Origin: Mustelus asterias
Lineage: Eukaryota
Assembly: GCF_964213995.1 (NCBI RefSeq)
Contig: NC_135803.1
Coordinates: forward strand, 73,098,001-73,162,000
Direction of reading: 5' to 3'
Length of the DNA: 64,000 nucleotides
The notes beneath the pieces are model-generated. The model ran no database searches, was not told where the DNA came from, and worked only from the letters and a program-made list of their open reading frames with translations. Shown here one piece after another: positions 121 through 20,069 of this stretch; within the stretch, counting starts at the first letter, position 1, and every line of letters begins with the position of its first letter. Made by a program: the position numbers and the translations under genes.

Positions 121-537
121 AATAAAGGGGCTCCAGGAGGAAGGGCAGAAGGAAGCTTGTAGAAATGACCTGTTTCAGTGCTGTAAGTGCTACGCAAATA
201 GTGTTATTCCAGGCAATGTCACACACAGGCAAGACAATCACTAATCCATTATTTTGTTTTGTTCCATTAATCTCTCATTAACAAAAGAACGCTGGCGTAT
301 AGAAGCCCTCCTCAGACAGCTAGAGAAGTTCAATGCCCCAGAGGCAACAGATAGCAATGGGTTATGATAAAGTGAAACCAGCGTAGAATGGACAGCAAGA
401 TAAGACACGGAAAAAGTGACCCTCACCATTCTGCTGTAAATGCAGGTTACCATCTCCATATGATGTATTCTTTCTGCATTGAATGTACTCAATCAAAACA
501 GGTCTGCAAATGAAACAGGCAATAACCATTACTTTAC

Positions 538-1057
538 CTTCTCCCAGACCATGCTTCTGCAGGTTGTCAATGCGCGACTGAAGTTGATGCTCCTTCACTC
601 CAAACAGTTCTGGACAGTTTTCCAGGACCTTGATGATGCTGGTTTGGTTTAGGCCAAGGAGGTTGAGCATGTAAAGTGTAGGGAGACTCTTTTGTGGCGG
701 CTGTACAGCAATACTGGGATTCAAAGCGAGCAGCTGCTTCATCTGAACCTGGCTGAATCCCAGCTTCAGGATGGATTCGGCCACACTCTCAAACCCAGAG
801 GCATCAATGTCTGACTTTCCAAAATATTTCGCAGCAGTTTGGCGAAGAGCTTCCAGAAAGTCAGATTTGATCTTTGGAGCTGAAAGGGAGTCTGGTGAAG
901 TTTTCTCAGACTGACTGAGAGTCCTGGCTGTAGAGAACCCACAAGAGATGTATCTCCAAGATCCTGCATTTTGAGCGTTGTATTTTTGTGTAGAGGGAAG
1001 CTGCCAATAGCTGACAGGGGGCTGGATCCTCTGGAGATGACAGTGTAAGAGCACAGC
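538..1057 (-). CDS. MTERF4: MTERF4 coding exon 2 (mitochondrial transcription termination factor 4); gene continues left of the window
   Basis: Acceptor tttcag|GCT, donor GAAG|gtaaag. Translation ...SILKLGFS...LLGLNQTSIIKVLENCPELF...LQKHGLGEG resembles human MTERF4 exon 2 as I recall it (ending LQKLGLGEG). Confidence 0.88.
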
Positions 1058-1435
1058 CTGAAATATAACATGGACCAGGGTGAGGAAAGAAGGGAAATAG
1101 TCCACGTGCAGCACAGACTGGACATGGAGCCCAAAACCTTTCAAATTTCACCATGCCCTATATTAAACCCTCTTGAGGCAGTGGACAGACCCAGCAGGTT
1201 ACATTCAGGGCTGACTGCATTCCAATTATCTTATCACAATATCAATCATCTCATTATTAAGCACCATAGGATTCACTTCCTCTTTTACTGAAGATCAGTC
1301 CAAAGTATTTATTAAATACCACCCCCATGTATTGATAATCTTCATGTGGAGATGCCGGCGTTGGACTGGGGTGAACACAGTAAGAAGTCTCACAACACCA
1401 GGTTAAAGTCCAACAGGTTTATTTGGTAGCAAATA

Positions 1436-6553: not shown

Positions 6554-7092
6554 TCACTTCAGAACGGTAAAGGCTAGAGTCACCCCGATTCGAACCCGTA
6601 GTGCTGGGTGGAGAGGCTCAGTGAATGCTCCATGGAAGGTGTGTAACAAGGTTAGTTCATGCTCTGACACAGTGTAGAAGGAGATTAACCCACCTTCAAA
6701 ATCAATATAGACTCCCAATGTGGAGAGCTTTTCTGCCTTCACAGCAATTCTCTTCCCGTCATGTAGGCATGAAAGGGCGTCAGGCCCAGAGTGAATGCAC
6801 CAGGACTTGTCGTTAAAGCCCAGCAGACATTCATTGCCTGCTCCTCTCCTGCTGATACTTTTGTAGCAGACTCCAATGCTCCAGGCCCCATCACCCTCCT
6901 TAACCTTAACCTCCCAGTAAGATCGACCACAACTCACAGCCTCGGCACCAAGAATCTGTGGCCACCGGTCAAAGATTTCTACGCTTTTGGGAAACATCTG
7001 GATCTGACTGGATGCTGATACTGTTCTATTATTGTCTGTCAGAGCGAGGTAGGGATTTGCTGTGTTTGGATCCAGAGTTGGTGTCTGTCCAT
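6554..7092 (-). CDS. TRIM E3 ligase, exon 6 (PRY/SPRY, B30.2 domain, stop)
   Basis: tgatag|AT GGA...; YGQTPTLDPNTANPYL...GRSYWEV...LGVYIDFEGGLISFY...FTEPLHPAL, ends TGA; phase fits exon 5. Confidence 0.92.
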
Positions 7093-8763
7093 CTATCAGT
7101 AAAAAGGAGACAGTGAAGTAAATGACCTGTTCACTTCCTACAGAGTATCTGAAGTTTTTTTAAAGAAACATGGCAGACCCCTTTCACGCAATTTCTCTGT
7201 GGTTTCCAAGTCAGCCTTGGCTTCTTGGTAGCACACACTGGTTCAGAGGGTCACTGATTCCAGTCCCACTCCAGAAACCTCAGTTTATAATCCAGACCAA
7301 CTCCCAGTGCAGTGCTGAGAGAGTACAGCACCTGTTAAAGATGCCATTTGGACGAGATGTTAAACAAATTCCTCCCTGAGGTAGACATAAAAGATCCCCT
7401 ACTTGGAATCCTCAAGATCTACTTGAACAGCAAGTGATTCCATACATACAAGCTAGGAGAAGGTCACTCAGCCCCTCATTTTTTTGATCTGATTGCAACC
7501 TCAACACCACCCTCCTGCCTACCCCCATTGTCTGGTCATTTATTTAATGTAAATCAGCTGCCACATTTCCTCAAAGGAAGAATGTGTAGGGTTACGGCTG
7601 GGAAATGCTACTAGGTGCATTGCTGAGAGTTAACACAGACACAATGGCAAATGGCCACCTTCTGCACTGTAACCGTTCTGTGATTACAATGACTACGATT
7701 ACAAACCACTTTGGGACGTGATGAGGTTACAAAGGGTGTTACAGAAATGCAAGTTTATTGTCCTTTCTTACAAAGCTTTTGAATAAATGCAGTGTCTGGA
7801 GCAGACAAACTGTCCACTGACTGACATCTCTGATCCTATCACCTTTAATCTGTTCTTTTCAGCAAGCCAATGGCACCTCCTTTAAATATGTAGATCAGGT
7901 GCTAATTCAGGGGCAGTCGAATGTAATTTTAACTTGAGGCCTTCGCATGGGGGCGGAGCCGTCCTGACTTTCTCACAAAGCTAACAAGCAGACATGGAGC
8001 CAGGATGGGCTTAGTAAAGTCAGCTATGTGTCATTTCTCTGTTCTTCTGGAAGAGGCCTAAAATACTGATCTCCTCCAGCTGTACGAGGAAACCTTCGGC
8101 CTTTTTCTTCTTCCCTCCAAATCCTCCTTCTCAGGGGCAATTCCTTCAAGACCACAATAGCAAACTCACTGCTGTCCAAGATCCCATTTCTATCTGCCTG
8201 CCCAGAGTTGATTTGGGTGGGAAACTGAGTGCCTGGGGTGCTTTTTGATTGTTGAAAGTGTTATTATTGTCACCAATGTTCATTACATGCAATAAAGGCA
8301 TCAGCTCCGTTTTTACACTGTTAACAACATTCCCATTAGATATCCCAGCTTCAATCTGTCACAGTGTAATCATAGATTTAAACACAACCTGGTTTAACCA
8401 CATCACTCCTCTTTGGGTCCAAATATTTTACGAGAGAGCCATAATGTGAGCCTCTGAAATTATTTTGCCTCTAAAAAAGTGCCGCTGATCTCAGGTGTAC
8501 AGTGCTGTTATAAACCATTTTGGGTGAAGTGGTCAAGTATTCAATATTAAATTCTGCAATCAGTGCTCAATTAATAAAAATAAATTTTATTGATATATAA
8601 AATAGCTCTAAGGGAGAAGGATTATTACATAGATAATTGGTGGTTGCAGTTGAATTATATTGTGACAGCTGAAATAGCAAAATTGAATGGGAAACGCTGA
8701 CAGAAGAAAGGTTTGTGCACAGGGAGCAAGGCTATTAAAAATAGATTTCTGTCGGGCACTTAC

Positions 8764-10486: not shown

Positions 10487-10809
10487 CTGAAACAAAATAA
10501 ACAGAACACAGGTGTAAAACAGAATACATAGAATATGAACAGGCTCAAACTGGAAGGGTGGTCATAGCCCCTGTGGCCACAGAGCCACCATCATTGCACA
10601 TTTATCTATGTCGGTGGTGGGAAAATCTAGGCTCATGGAGTGGCCCTCAAGATTGAAATTGGACATGCTCAGAGCTGTGATACTGATACATTTTATGTTT
10701 CAGGAAAATGTTCAGTCTTCTTTTTCTACAGAGTCGGAGTGTCCGGAAGGAATATAGCTCAGATGCTGGGAAAGCAAGATAACTACTCATTTTAGGCATG
10801 TAGTGTTTA

Positions 10810-11810
10810 CAACTATGCTGCAGGAAGCATATCCTGGGATGTTTCCCGACCGTGTGGTAATAAGATCACAAAGGCACAGGTTGAGACAGGAAGAGGAGAA
10901 ATCAGAGAGTAAAGACAAGGAGGCTGCGATTCATAATCCGAAACAATCTTTGACCAAGATTGATAAAGAACAGGTGGAAGAGGAAGCTGCTATCTTTAGT
11001 TTAGGGAAGTTGGCAGAATTACAACAGAAAGATGCAGAGATAAAGCAATTGTGTCAGAAAGCACACACAGGAGGAGAATCTGTGTGTATACCAGAGTGTT
11101 ATTAATGAGGAAGTGGAGACCGTTACATATTCAGACAGATGAAAAATGAGTAGAAGTTCATCAAGTTGTATTACTGATGGGTTATAGAACCTTTACTCGG
11201 GTCCTAATTGGTTGTGTGGGACCCCTGTCTAAAACGAAAAGTGGGAATCAGTATTCGGTGACCATAATGGATGTGTTTAGATTTCTGGAGGCCATTCCAT
11301 CATATTACATTACAACTAAAGAGGGTTGTAGAGGAGTTACTTAAATATTTAAACCAGATACAGACTGCCCACAAATCCAATCAGATCAAGATCCATTTTA
11401 CATTGAAGTGATTCAGGGATGTTATGGATAGCTTGGAGTAAAACAATTTAAATTAACTGCATATCATCCAGAGTTGCAGGGAGCGCTGGCACGATGGCAT
11501 CATCTTTAAAGACCATGTTAAGGGCCTATAGTCAGGATTATCCAGAGGATTGGGATAAAGGAATTCCATTTATACTTTTTGTAATTAGGGATGCACCTAA
11601 TGAATCAATTAAATTCAGTCCATTGGAATTGGTTTTTGGTCATGAGATAAGAGGACAACTTAAATCGATCAAGGAGAAAAACTGGTGAGTCAATGTTCTG
11701 AGACTACATTGTTGTACTATGTCAAATTTATGAAGAGGTTAACTAGGGCTGATGAGTTGGTTAGACAGCATTTTAAAATGAAGAAAATAGAAATGGATAA
11801 AAGATCAAAT
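10810..11810 (+). mobile_element. Decayed Gypsy/Ty3 LTR-retrotransposon integrase remnant
   Basis: Frameshifted CVGPLSKTKSGNQY..TIMD, IQSDQ, TAYHPE.QGAL, LKTMLRAY..DWDKGIPFILF.IRDAPNES.KFSP.ELVFG. Confidence 0.8.
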
Positions 11811-12429
11811 TCAGTTTTGTTAGTGGGGGTAAGCATTAGTACTACTAATCAGTTAAAAGTTAAGCAGCTTCACAAGCTTGTTTTCATAAAAGAACCCTAA
11901 TTTGTCAGTGGAATTACTTCCAGAGTGAAGCATCTTTTCCTCACATTTATTAAAAAATAAAAAGATTGTGGGGTCTAGTTTGGCTTAATAATATAACTTG
12001 GGATTCTAGTCTGGGACCTCAACTATGACCCTTAAATAAGATCAAATACATGCCAAATATTTTGCAACAAGTTATAGAAAATTTTTAATCATTCACTTAT
12101 ATTAATAGAAGTGTCAAGTGGTAGAAACCAAAAGAAATATTCATGTTTGATTGGATGCAGAGGGAGCGCACAGCTCTCATGGTCAATATTGTGTACAGTT
12201 GGCACACGCCTCACTTCACGGGTATATCACCTTAGTCATACCAGTAAGAGAAAAACTACACAGTGGAATGTGGCAACCCTGCACATGGGCAACAGTCAAC
12301 AAATCTTATGGACCACACACAGAACCCCGGTGGGCTGCATGTGGCCTACCACTGAGCTATATTGTTCATTTAAAAAAAATCCTAGCTATGTATGTTGAGT
12401 TCAAATGGGAGAGAGAGTAAAGGGAGCCT

Positions 12430-13270
12430 TATGACTTATTGGAGAAGGTCCTTAAAGAGGGATTTTTAAGGCGGGTATTTCAGCTAAGTAGCCAAAAGCA
12501 CTACACCTTCAGGAATGGGGCAGGTGATATGGGAACAGTCCAGTCAGAAGAGAGCCAGAGAAACAGCACATAACAGCAGGAGGAGATGACAGGGAGAGAG
12601 AGACCATGGAGAGATTTCTTTTAATTCCAATTCAATCAAATCAGCGTCTCAACAAATTGAGACATTCCCGATCCGAGCTGACAAGACAGGGCTCTCACCT
12701 CCTGTCTTGGGCTTGATCTACATGATCCAAGCTGATTGGAGTAGGCATAGCTCCTCCAAGGCTTGATCTCATTTGCATCTTAGCCAAAAGGCCGAGATGC
12801 CACTTTTAAAAATTGCTTCAAATGAAGCTAAAATGTAACCTAATGACTTCAACCAAGCACAGCATGTCGATACTACACTCGATCTTAGCCAAAAGGCCGA
12901 GATTAAACAAGAGGATTTTGAATTAAGTGTGACATGGGTTGGGAAATGAATATTAGTGAGGATAGAGGCACTAGGGAAGTTGAATTTAGTTCTGTAGAGG
13001 ACTCGTGGGGCAGAGTATGGGTGACCAGCCAGCATAGCATCTAAACAGTCAAGTGCACTAGTGATAGTCAAGAATAAGGAATTCAGCAGAGACTGATTGA
13101 TGGAAGTAGGTAATCCATCTGGTGGGAGAATGGGGAGACTAAAACTATGCTCAGGGTCAAACAAGATGCCAAGTTCGCAAATGGTCAATTGAGTCTGAGG
13201 CATTGGTTGTGGAAACGGACGAAATCCATTTTGAAGGGTTTTTAAAAAAAATGGGGATAGAAGTTTTCAA
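12430..13270 (-). mobile_element. Old L2-like LINE remnant (host of the U2-derived insert)
   Basis: Degenerate LGILFDPEHSF segment; similar to the L2-like copies at 47.1-48.2 kb and 57.0-57.8 kb. Confidence 0.5.
12617..12902 (-). mobile_element. U2 snRNA-headed structured element (SINE-like) inserted in an L2 remnant
   Basis: 12869-12902 matches U2 nt 7-40 (33/34); 12777-12797 matches U2 nt 7-27. Followed by three hairpins and a TTGA/GAATT-like tail. GAGATT on both flanks. Confidence 0.7.
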
Positions 13271-13949: not shown

Positions 13950-14372
13950 AGGTGGCATGGTCGTTAGCACTGCTGTCTCAGATTTCCACTCCATCTGACG
14001 AAGGAGCAGCGCTCCGAAAGCTAATGGCATTTGCTATCAAATAAACCTGTTGGACTTTAACCTGGTGTTGTTAAAACTCTTACTCAACTCCAGGAACCCA
14101 GGTTCAATTCTGGCTTTGGGCGATTGCTCAAACTGTACACAGACATTCGCCCAGTGACTGCATGGGTTTCCTAGCACACTCCAAAGATGTGCAGGTTAGG
14201 TGGATTGGCCATGCTAAATTGCCCCTTAGTGGCCCAAGATGTGTAGGTTAAATGGATTAGCCATGGGAAATGCGTCGGGTTACAGGGATAGGGTCTGGGT
14301 AAGTTAGTGTGTCAGAGAGTTGGTATGGACTCAATGGGCTGAATGGTCTCTTCTGCACAATAGGGATTCTGT
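13950..14372 (+). mobile_element. HE1-like tRNA SINE interrupted by a Penelope pLTR fragment (13981-14084)
   Basis: SINE head ggtggcatggtcgttagcactgctgtctca resumes at caactccaggaacccaggttcaattc; CR1-like tail. Confidence 0.75.
13991..14027 (+). ncRNA. Minimal hammerhead ribozyme
   Basis: CCAU CUGACGA A GGAGC agc GCUCC GAAA GC UA AUGG. Confidence 0.8.
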
Positions 14373-14441
14373 GATTATTAATAATACATGTGGTTTATAG
14401 CAATCAATCATTTGATCGCCTCCAATCACATTAAGTATTAC

Positions 14442-14675
14442 CTGGATAAAGAGGATGTCATCATACTTTTGTGAAAGGATGTTGAGCTCTGTCAGAGATT
14501 TCTCAAATTCTTTTGCTGCGTTCTGGAGGTTGATGATCCTTGCGTCAATCTCTGCTGTTACACGGATCTGCTCCCTGTCCACCTCTTCAAAGGCTTCTCT
14601 TTCTTCTTCATTAATCTGCTGCCTGAGAGCCTCGTACTTCTCCTCAATGTTTATTTCCTTCTCCTTTATTGCTGC
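14442..14675 (-). CDS. TRIM gene exon 3 (234 nt, coiled coil)
   Basis: tgaag|GCA...ATC CAG|gtaata; AAIKEKEINIEEKYEALRQQINEEE...DDILFIQ. Confidence 0.9.
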
Positions 14676-15129
14676 CTTCAATAACAATGTTTTAGTGATT
14701 ACACAATACAGATCTTGCACACTCTTCATTAATAGTCAGCTGTGTTTCAGTGGGCAGTACTCTCACCAATGGATCAGAAGGTTGTGGGTTCAAGCCCCAC
14801 TCCAGAATCATGAACTCAAGGCTAACCCAAGAAAATATTGCAATGTTTGGCCCCTTGGGCAGACAAAAACATCCAGAACACTATTTGAGAAAGAATGGAG
14901 TTTTCTGGTCAATATTTATCCCTACACCAACATCTAAAACAGATGCTCCCATTGCCTCATTACTGTTGTGGAAGTTTCGAGCACACAAATTCACTCCATT
15001 GCAAGTGATTGACTGCACAGTGCCTCAAGAGATCAGTAAATGCAAATCTTTTGCCTTTTCCTCACATTGATGCCCAACAGTAAGAGTGTGTCATTAAACA
15101 GAGAGGAGGAGATTACAGTAAAGAGTGTG

Positions 15130-18649: not shown

Positions 18650-18822
18650 ACACCACTTGAAAGAAAGTAGCTCACCACCACCTTCCCAAGTGCAATTAGG
18701 GGCCGGTAACAAATGCTGGCTTAAACAAAACTTTAATAAATCATCCATGGTGATTTTTCATTAAAGCAATTATCTATCTAGTTAAAATAAAGAGCTATAT
18801 ATTTTCACTAGTGCACACATAC

Positions 18823-19392
18823 CCTCAACTCCTTCACTGCTTCACTAATGCTGATCAAGTCGTGGCCCTTGTGGCTTCCTATTAAAGCGCAGAGGCTGCA
18901 GACACAGATAGCATCGTCCTTACAGTAAATTTCCAGCAACTTCTGGTGCTCTGCGCATTTGCCAATCGCCATGTCTGCAGTTGGGTCTGTGAGAGGGTGG
19001 CTTTGCAGCACCACATTCTCCTGGTGCAGCCTGAGGTGTATGGAGCACATGGAGACTTCACATTGAAGGCAGCTTTTAATGGCCGAGCGCCTTTTCTTGG
19101 TGCAGTAGGTGCAGGGCACAGCGCCATGGGACGGATCCAGAGCCAAGTAACTGGCCACGATGTTGGCCAGCTGGAAATTCTTCTCCAGGGTGGGCCTCAG
19201 GCCGGAGCCTGCCCGACACTGCGGGCAGCTGTAGGTGCCACACCCGGGCTCCCTCCACACTGCCTCAAGGCAGGCCCGGCAGAAACTGTGCTTACAGCTG
19301 AGAATCACCGGCTCCGTGTAAATCTCCAGGCAGACCGGGCAGGTCAGCTCCTCCTCCAGAGGCTCCTGCTGGAGAGCTGCTGCTGCCGCCAT
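18823..19392 (-). CDS. TRIM gene exon 1 (RING, B-box1, B-box2); TRIM25/47/finTRIM-like architecture
   Basis: MAAAAALQQEPLEEELTCPVCLEIY..CKHSFC..C..CPQC (RING), CTYC..CLQC..C..H, CAEH..C..D..C..C..H..H; donor AGG|gtatgt. Spliced CDS 1590 nt = 529 aa. Confidence 0.92.
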
Positions 19393-20069
19393 GTCGCCCG
19401 GAAGTAGCGGGGAGGAAGAGGAATCAGACTGTACAACTCCCTGTGCACCGCAGAAAGAGTCCCGGACAATTGGAAATAAATAGCCCAACACTCAGGAGAC
19501 TGCAGATTATTAATAATAATTATTATCATATTATTATATAGTTTTATTCTTTCACAGGATATTATTATTGCTGCCCAGACAGCTTTATTGCCTCCGTTTT
19601 TGCTGCATTTTTCCCCTCACAATAATAACTTTCTATGTGGGGTTGAAGTTACAATCAGATCAGCCATGGTGAAGCAGGCTCGAGGGGCCTACTCCTGCAC
19701 CTAATTCGTATGTTGCTGTACGATAGTGCCATGGTCAGTCAACCTATCCGCCCTGCAGCCCTCACTCTCATCCAAACAAGCTGAAAGAACCTCAAACCTG
19801 TTGGACAATTGTATAGACTGACATGCCTGCCCTCTGGGTCTCCTTACATGCCTCAGCTGCAGTCATATCATCCTGTCCATGACCACCTTCCAGATCGAAG
19901 AGCCTATCCTAAGGCTGTGATTGCCTCCACATACAAAGTGTCCAGGTAACTCACATCCTCCTTGATGTGTCACTATGTCCATAGCTCAGCATCCAGCTCA
20001 GTCACTCTGAGCCAAAGCTCCTTAATCCACAGACACTTACTACAGATGTGCTTGCCCTGGATAACACTG

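Follow-up and report, generated by a model that had tools for sequence, protein, structure and literature searches.

The window, by which we mean the whole 64,000-nt stretch of Mustelus asterias contig NC_135803.1 that was analysed, contains on its minus strand a TRIM gene whose exons, at positions 6554-7159, 14331-14735, and 18808-19491, encode the RING, B-box, coiled-coil, and PRY-SPRY parts, and a short retroposon copy lies within an intron of that gene, in sense orientation, between the coiled-coil and the PRY-SPRY exons. The window holds, in addition, an open reading frame with an mTERF domain (362-1147, minus strand; E 1.8e-9) and, at 10758-11900 of the plus strand, a series of broken frames that by eye resemble the integrase region of an LTR retroelement, for which stretch there was no Pfam match. 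The upstream flank of the copy returned itself alone in a search of the genome and had no Pfam match, while the downstream flank gave one match of ~90 nt among the loci examined; the L2-like remnant that the initial annotation had described around the element could not be confirmed from these comparisons. The parts of the copy are as follows:

12615..12902, minus strand: whole retroposon copy of the young subfamily A, 5'-truncated by 6 nt and with two small deletions
12869..12902, minus strand: U2 head, nt 7-40, 33/34 to the host U2 gene
12838..12866, minus strand: predicted anti-U2 arm, pairing back onto the head (MFE fold and 44-copy consensus)
12804..12828, minus strand: small hairpin, then a conserved A-U5-A (near-invariant columns; placed by Rfam on the U2 Sm region)
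12770..12800, minus strand: second U2 segment, nt 4-33-like, including an octamer (31-nt alignment to U2 4-33, 90%)
12724..12768, minus strand: hairpin 1, duplicate of hairpin 2 (local alignment z 7.5, 0/500 shuffles)
12670..12718, minus strand: hairpin 2, from U2 nt ~25-66 by way of an older family, and bearing the one clear compensatory pair
12646..12663, minus strand: hairpin 3, which the older-family alignment sets opposite U2 stem-loop IIb
12615..12645, minus strand: tail, the U2 Sm-site region in decayed form and then an A-rich end, as aligned through the older family
12899..12904, minus strand: putative 6-bp target-site duplication (TSD), 5' copy, with 4 nt common to the U2 head
12611..12616, minus strand: putative 6-bp TSD, 3' copy, from the sequence

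The initial annotation had matched the head, which spans the U2 stem-loop I together with the branch-point-recognition sequence, to U2 nt 7-40 at 33 of 34 positions, and the same count was obtained against the host's own U2 gene (12902-12869); in the full-length reference copy L007 the head is 40/40 identical to the host U2 nt 1-40. The gap of ~70 nt claimed to precede a second U2 match, nt 7-27, measures 71 nt; that match has its nt 7 at 12797, is exact over 21 nt, and continues into the octamer ATGCAAAT at 12778-12771 of the minus strand, while the three hairpins likewise could be located (12768-12724, 12718-12670, and 12663-12646). The A-U5-A stretch is Sm-site-like, minus the final G, and, as an internal T5 run, would double as a Pol III stop. 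The 6-mer reported on both sides was found as well (12904-12899 and 12616-12611), but as a TSD it is weak when taken alone because four of its six bases on the 5' side are those of U2 nt 7-10. At the gathering score Rfam gave no matches over the whole window, the U2 match of the copy (E 6e-7, 44.1 bits) falling below the cut-off of 46 bits. U2 was the only family among the Rfam matches of the element, on which ground, along with the internal T5 run, we rejected a classical Pol III SINE having a tRNA, 7SL, or 5S head and an internal promoter. The predicted fold of the element RNA had a z of -4.95, none of 200 shuffles being as good.

In a DNA search of the 3.68-Gb genome, in which the best 40 of 2,300 candidates were scored, the window copy was 92-94% identical to the 39 best other copies, and it carries 2.5% substitutions relative to the majority of subfamily A. 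The dispersed family that the initial annotation had proposed to look for exists: an internal 18-mer had 5,356 exact matches genome-wide and its control none, which figure, in counting exact matches, is a lower bound on the copy number; the 135,653 Rfam candidates, a rough figure, were dropped in favour of that exact count. The unit measures ~310 nt and has a U2 head, an A-rich tail, TSDs, and several subfamilies, each 2-4% from its own majority and each with a constant head-spacer junction. The first 60 distinct loci of the 18-mer list, taken in order of position, yielded 75 copies, 5 of them of subfamily A and 72 with an intact 3' end. Among these latter, 31 start at U2 nt 1-5, 29 at 6-16, 5 at 17-40, and 7 further in, so that 60/72 begin within U2 nt 1-16. 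Duplications of at least 7 bp flank 43/72 copies versus 194/1,417 swapped-flank controls; a stricter script, which accepted only duplications of at least 10 bp and omitted tandem members, retained only 24/73 copies (19/51 in the position-ordered sample and 5/22 in the young set). Head-to-tail tandems occur at 8 of the 60 sampled loci, and the flanks of the dispersed copies are either unrelated sites or U2. The spacer, the hairpins, and the subfamily-specific changes that the copies have in common exclude U2 processed pseudogenes, which would be independent copies with no common non-U2 structure. Part of a subfamily-A copy was present in 19 runs (8 coded organisms and one fish metagenome, from 9 studies), none of those listed being an RNA run. 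As separate observations, L090, L116, and L173 contain inverted 5' segments or head-to-head copies that recall twin priming, and at L191/L192 there is a 5' half of the element whose second U2 segment runs on as true U2 to nt 94, which structure suggests recombination or template switching between the element and U2 RNA.

An older, single-headed family (92 exact matches of a 26-mer; loci L009, L194, and L229-L248), whose median divergence over 20 copies is 14% with flank columns included, gives an alignment z of 13.2 against U2 34-191 and one of 10.4 against the modern body, with 0/500 shuffles in each instance. Because the modern body, when aligned directly to U2 34-191, gave nothing significant (z 1.2 and 0.2), its U2 ancestry was established via that older family. 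As judged from these alignments, the body of the element—the three hairpins and the tail—is decayed U2 and not LINE-derived. The older family looks like a diverged U2 of full length to which an A-rich tail has been attached, and is itself a candidate snRNA-derived SINE. The octamer hardly varies among 44 copies; it differs from U2 nt 26-33 by a single insertion and a single substitution, and the second U2 segment thus extends to nt 33. We had considered the octamer as an imported enhancer, but by alignment it is better taken as mutated U2 nt 26-33.

In the 44-copy consensus the spacer pairs with nt 14-36 of the head, which fold-back comprises 19 consensus pairs with 97-99% of the cells paired and with single-sided changes only; over the whole consensus, 67 pairs have 98.2% of the cells paired, compared with 25-41% in slid controls. 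Changes on both sides occur in 13 cells, 12 of which are in one pair, and the remaining support comes mostly from wobble changes. Before the pairs were counted, the long-range pairs of RNAalifold (4 + 3) were removed and 3 pairs were added to hairpin 3. We regard the support for the structure as moderate, because the kinship of the copies inflates the pair counts. The identity alignment of the spacer with the reverse complement of U2 1-60 was weak (z 2.4), in that the pairing depends on G-U. When modelled in this way, the arm would mask stem-loop I of the head as well as the branch-point sequence, and might serve as a shield with respect to the spliceosome.

The U2 genes proper of this host form a 1,833-bp array and an 8,035-bp array on C24, and a variant U2, 90% identical to the major type and which may be a pseudogene, forms short arrays with a different upstream region; a motif of the U2 3' half matched 122 sites. 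The initial annotation had proposed a search for source copies in U2 genes, and at seven loci the element lies directly behind a U2-gene upstream region. L056/L060, whose upstream region is 330/330 identical to the major promoter, and L223, whose proximal 90 nt are at 85%, are of the major type, with L129, L132, L142, L145, and L139 being of the variant type; the best major-promoter copy (L056:2051) lacks an internal stretch. At 6/7 of these loci the sequence after the element continues in U2 at nt 38-39. The variant-promoter matches (n = 19) lead into the element in 10 instances, into a LINE in 5, and into an intact U2 in 4, and some of those loci may be dispersed pieces of arrays. Exact junctions of the element tail with U2 nt 38 numbered 8 (control 0), or as a lower bound ~0.15% of the copies. 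A promoter-bearing copy of subfamily A was repeatedly sought in the assembly and not found, for which reason we infer the source of that subfamily from L189 alone. Separately, L148-L151 (C21:28.05-28.08 Mb) hold variant U2 genes in repeating units of 448 bp, which have an upstream region distinct to them and are heavily occupied by both the LINE and the element; and in U2 array units at L054 (2125-2331 and 3974-4180) ~16 nt are duplicated internally around nt 18-37, which may be scars of the insertion site.

Sequence from the U2 locus also accompanies dispersed copies. L189, at 96% identity to subfamily A, continues into U2 38-191 plus 36 nt of the 3' flank of the major array (187 nt at 98.9%), the whole unit being enclosed in a 14-bp TSD on another chromosome; its template RNA thus originated in a major U2 gene with a copy of the subfamily-A type inside. 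At L064, U2 35-53 precedes and U2 38-58 follows the element, all within a 13-bp duplication. On the 5' side, extended copies carry 7 nt (L059, the weakest case), 93 nt (L130), 36 nt (L141), or 12 nt (L146/147, one event) of U2 upstream sequence within duplications of 13-18 bp, and three of them are preceded by an additional U2 5' piece, with end points at nt 43, 48, and 52. From such transduced bases at either the 5' or the 3' end it follows that the RNA of these retrocopies derived from U2 genes, as a read-through template. The earlier proposal that the RNA is transcribed at a U2 locus into which a short parasite has inserted appears well supported, at the level of sequence, by these 5' and 3' transductions and by the promoter-bearing copies at U2 nt 38-40.

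Within the 8,035-bp unit lies a LINE that has a U2 head at its 5' end and joins U2 nt 38 at its 3' end; its ORF1 carries a zinc knuckle, and APE, RT, and zf-RVT domains are present. This LINE starts with U2 nt 1-33/35, its 5' end likewise folds back onto its own U2 head (z -3.77), and its features fit the Keno type as described in PMC4494074 and PMC4640811. The highest-identity named match of its ORF2 was a ray protein (81%), no named Keno sequence was present among the 120 homologues listed, and both LINE copies with listed ORFs are broken. At L051 (C24:44.81-44.94 Mb) the 8,035-bp unit is repeated in tandem at least 15 times, every unit pairing an intact U2 gene with a truncated U2 that holds a broken Keno-type LINE, so that the LINE there is amplified along with the U2 array. 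Since just 22 LINE 3' ends—15 of them in the amplified array, and counted with a shorter pattern—abut U2 nt 38, compared with 286 exact 3' ends, this LINE is ~92% off-target. Among the first 30 LINE-end loci, 7 have the short element within 1.5 kb (6 if the U2 locus is set aside), compared with 0.13-0.49 loci expected for 5,356-20,000 copies (P <= 1.3e-5), and L023, L160, L170, and L177 are direct LINE-element tandems with one common TSD. Insertion at GY|A, as in U2, was observed for 9/20 element copies (p 0.001) and 5/9 LINE copies (p 0.005) upon a background of 0.145, with the signal looking weaker in the young set. Because of the off-target insertions and the presence of the LINE beside the element at 7/30 loci, the Keno-type LINE is the likely mobiliser, and the co-insertions are in keeping with the retrotransposition in trans, with a link to Keno, that the initial annotation had put forward. 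A non-autonomous Keno or Utopia derivative with LINE-derived ends is probably not what the element is: between it and the Keno-type LINE there was no significant non-U2 match (best E 0.1), and the suggested check for a LINE-derived tail gave no significant match to that LINE either. A second Tx1-like family, 75-84% identical to the first, is present at L052, L057, L219, and L220, its 3' ends abutting U2 nt 40 and not nt 38; this family is an alternative partner for the element.

We consider it quite probable that the element is a short retroposon of U2 descent which, in homing to U2 genes, has its sources there, and which is mobilised in trans by the Keno-type LINE. In such a cycle, a few source copies, observed at U2 nt 38-40 in U2 gene units, would be transcribed by the external Pol II snRNA promoter of the gene, to give an RNA that, as the transduced copies suggest, would contain U2 1-40, the body, the A-tract, and the remaining U2 up to the 3' box. 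The proteins of the Keno-type Tx1 LINE would bind that RNA, prime mainly at the internal A-tract, and copy toward the 5' end. The majority of the insertions would enter degenerate sites throughout the genome with duplications of 11-21 bp and, in lacking a promoter, would be dead ends, while rare returns to U2 nt 38 would create new sources; the structures were observed, and their order in time is the presumed part. The family itself would have arisen from a full-length diverged U2 retroposon through 3' trimming, hairpin duplication, and the addition of a second head and the fold-back arm, in which scheme the homology was observed in the sequences whereas we infer the direction and the purpose of the changes.

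The same data could be read as a SINE that drives its own transcription from a promoter or enhancer inside it, such as the octamer, with the U2-embedded copies being by-products of LINE targeting. The near-invariance of the octamer, the coexistence of many subfamilies in the face of just 122 U2 3'-half sites, and the failure to find a promoter-bearing subfamily-A copy would all fit; but the transduction of U2-locus flanks at both ends, the T runs inside the element that stop Pol III, and the alignment of the octamer to U2 nt 26-33, along with the statement by Kojima (2015, PMC4494074) that snRNA genes have no known internal promoter, render this explanation improbable. Alternatively, every insertion could acquire a fresh head when the reverse transcriptase switches template to the abundant U2 snRNA, the true unit then being a headless body, as might be thought from the extra U2 5' pieces with differing ends (nt 43, 48, 52) before three 5'-extended copies and from the recurrent 5' additions reported by Kojima (2015, PMC4494074). 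Head-spacer junctions that are fixed within subfamilies, a spacer that pairs with the head, and the circumstance that just 7/72 copies start past nt 40 oppose that notion, which we hold to be very improbable.

Slightly less improbable than an internal promoter, though still unlikely, is a cycle with the same sources but with another Tx1 or L1 family as the main mobiliser, the second Tx1-like family, which abuts U2 nt 40, being one candidate. The existence of that family at four loci, the absence of a tail common to the element and the Keno-type LINE—the LINE compared—and the weaker site signal in the young subfamily point in that direction, while the element junctions that continue at nt 38, as do those of the Keno-type LINE, and the four direct tandems with one common TSD favour the Keno-type partner. 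We retain homing into U2 genes with mobilisation by the Keno-type LINE. A bolder extension, which we put forward tentatively and with somewhat less than even confidence, is that of an undescribed shark and ray lineage of 'homing' SINEs, almost entirely U2 in sequence, that would renew its sources behind an external promoter, and whose antisense arm would hide the branch-point sequence so that the spliceosome tolerates the RNA, the LINE partner having evolved the same fold-back. If true, the transcription of an snRNA-headed SINE would here be worked out for the first time; the named source loci, the transduced flanks, and the candidate partner LINE make the transcription question of such SINEs now testable. 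Apart from that extension, a single genome here preserves the probable steps by which a U2 gene gave rise to a composite SINE, a SINEU-like class is present outside the crocodilians, and two retroposons appear to compete for the few U2 genes, which are essential.

Regarding known systems, no published description of this element was found in the open literature, Repbase and Dfam being outside that scope so that an entry may exist there, and the portions of PMC5381603, PMC5786205, and PMC5499810 that were covered make no mention of such an element in sharks. Utopia uses the same U2 site and has reptile families with TSDs of about 20 bp, but is autonomous with a restriction-like endonuclease (PMC4640811), whereas the LINE here has an APE domain. 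With Keno, as described in PMC4494074 and PMC4640811, the element has the U2 junction in common, and the host LINE has the APE and RT and the insertion at the U2 site; unlike Keno, the short element encodes nothing and has no significant non-U2 sequence in common with that LINE, which itself, in contrast to a U2-specific Keno, is mostly off-target. Short R2 elements derive from a LINE, whereas the present element derives from the target RNA itself and occupies thousands of off-target sites. R2 in 28S rDNA is promoterless, transcribed from the target gene, and carries target sequence on its RNA (PMC4494074), as the present element would, though R2 resides at a Pol I locus. The Alu monomers from 7SL RNA offer another parallel, a small-RNA gene having become a SINE without a LINE tail and later a composite (PMC4494074), with the difference that Alu has an internal Pol III promoter and none is evident here.

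The closest likeness is to SINEU-1, -2, and -3, described from crocodilians only and with their transcription left open (Kojima, 2015, PMC4494074), which transcription is puzzling because snRNA promoters lie outside the transcribed region (PMC4494074). In common with SINEU, the element is a short (<500 bp), multicopy, poly(A)-tailed retroposon with a U2-derived head, a common structure, subfamilies, tandem insertions, repeated addition of heads, and internal oligo-T; SINEU-3, moreover, is likewise a remodelled U2. SINEU has no LINE-derived tail and has a partner in the Keno group of Tx1; for the present element, the tail gave no significant match to the Keno-type LINE, and the shared nt 38 site, the co-insertions, and the site preference are circumstantial signs of such a partner. 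The crocodilian host and the preference for Mariner-N4_AMi were not found here, SINEU targeting that transposon and not U2, and for SINEU neither a source locus nor a transcription mechanism was found, whereas here the sources lie inside U2 genes, sequence from the 5' as well as the 3' flank is transduced, and the head would be masked by a fold-back arm. As compared by description, the element works like SINEU, with a probably separate origin. What it adds to this known SINEU-like kind is source loci inside U2 genes.
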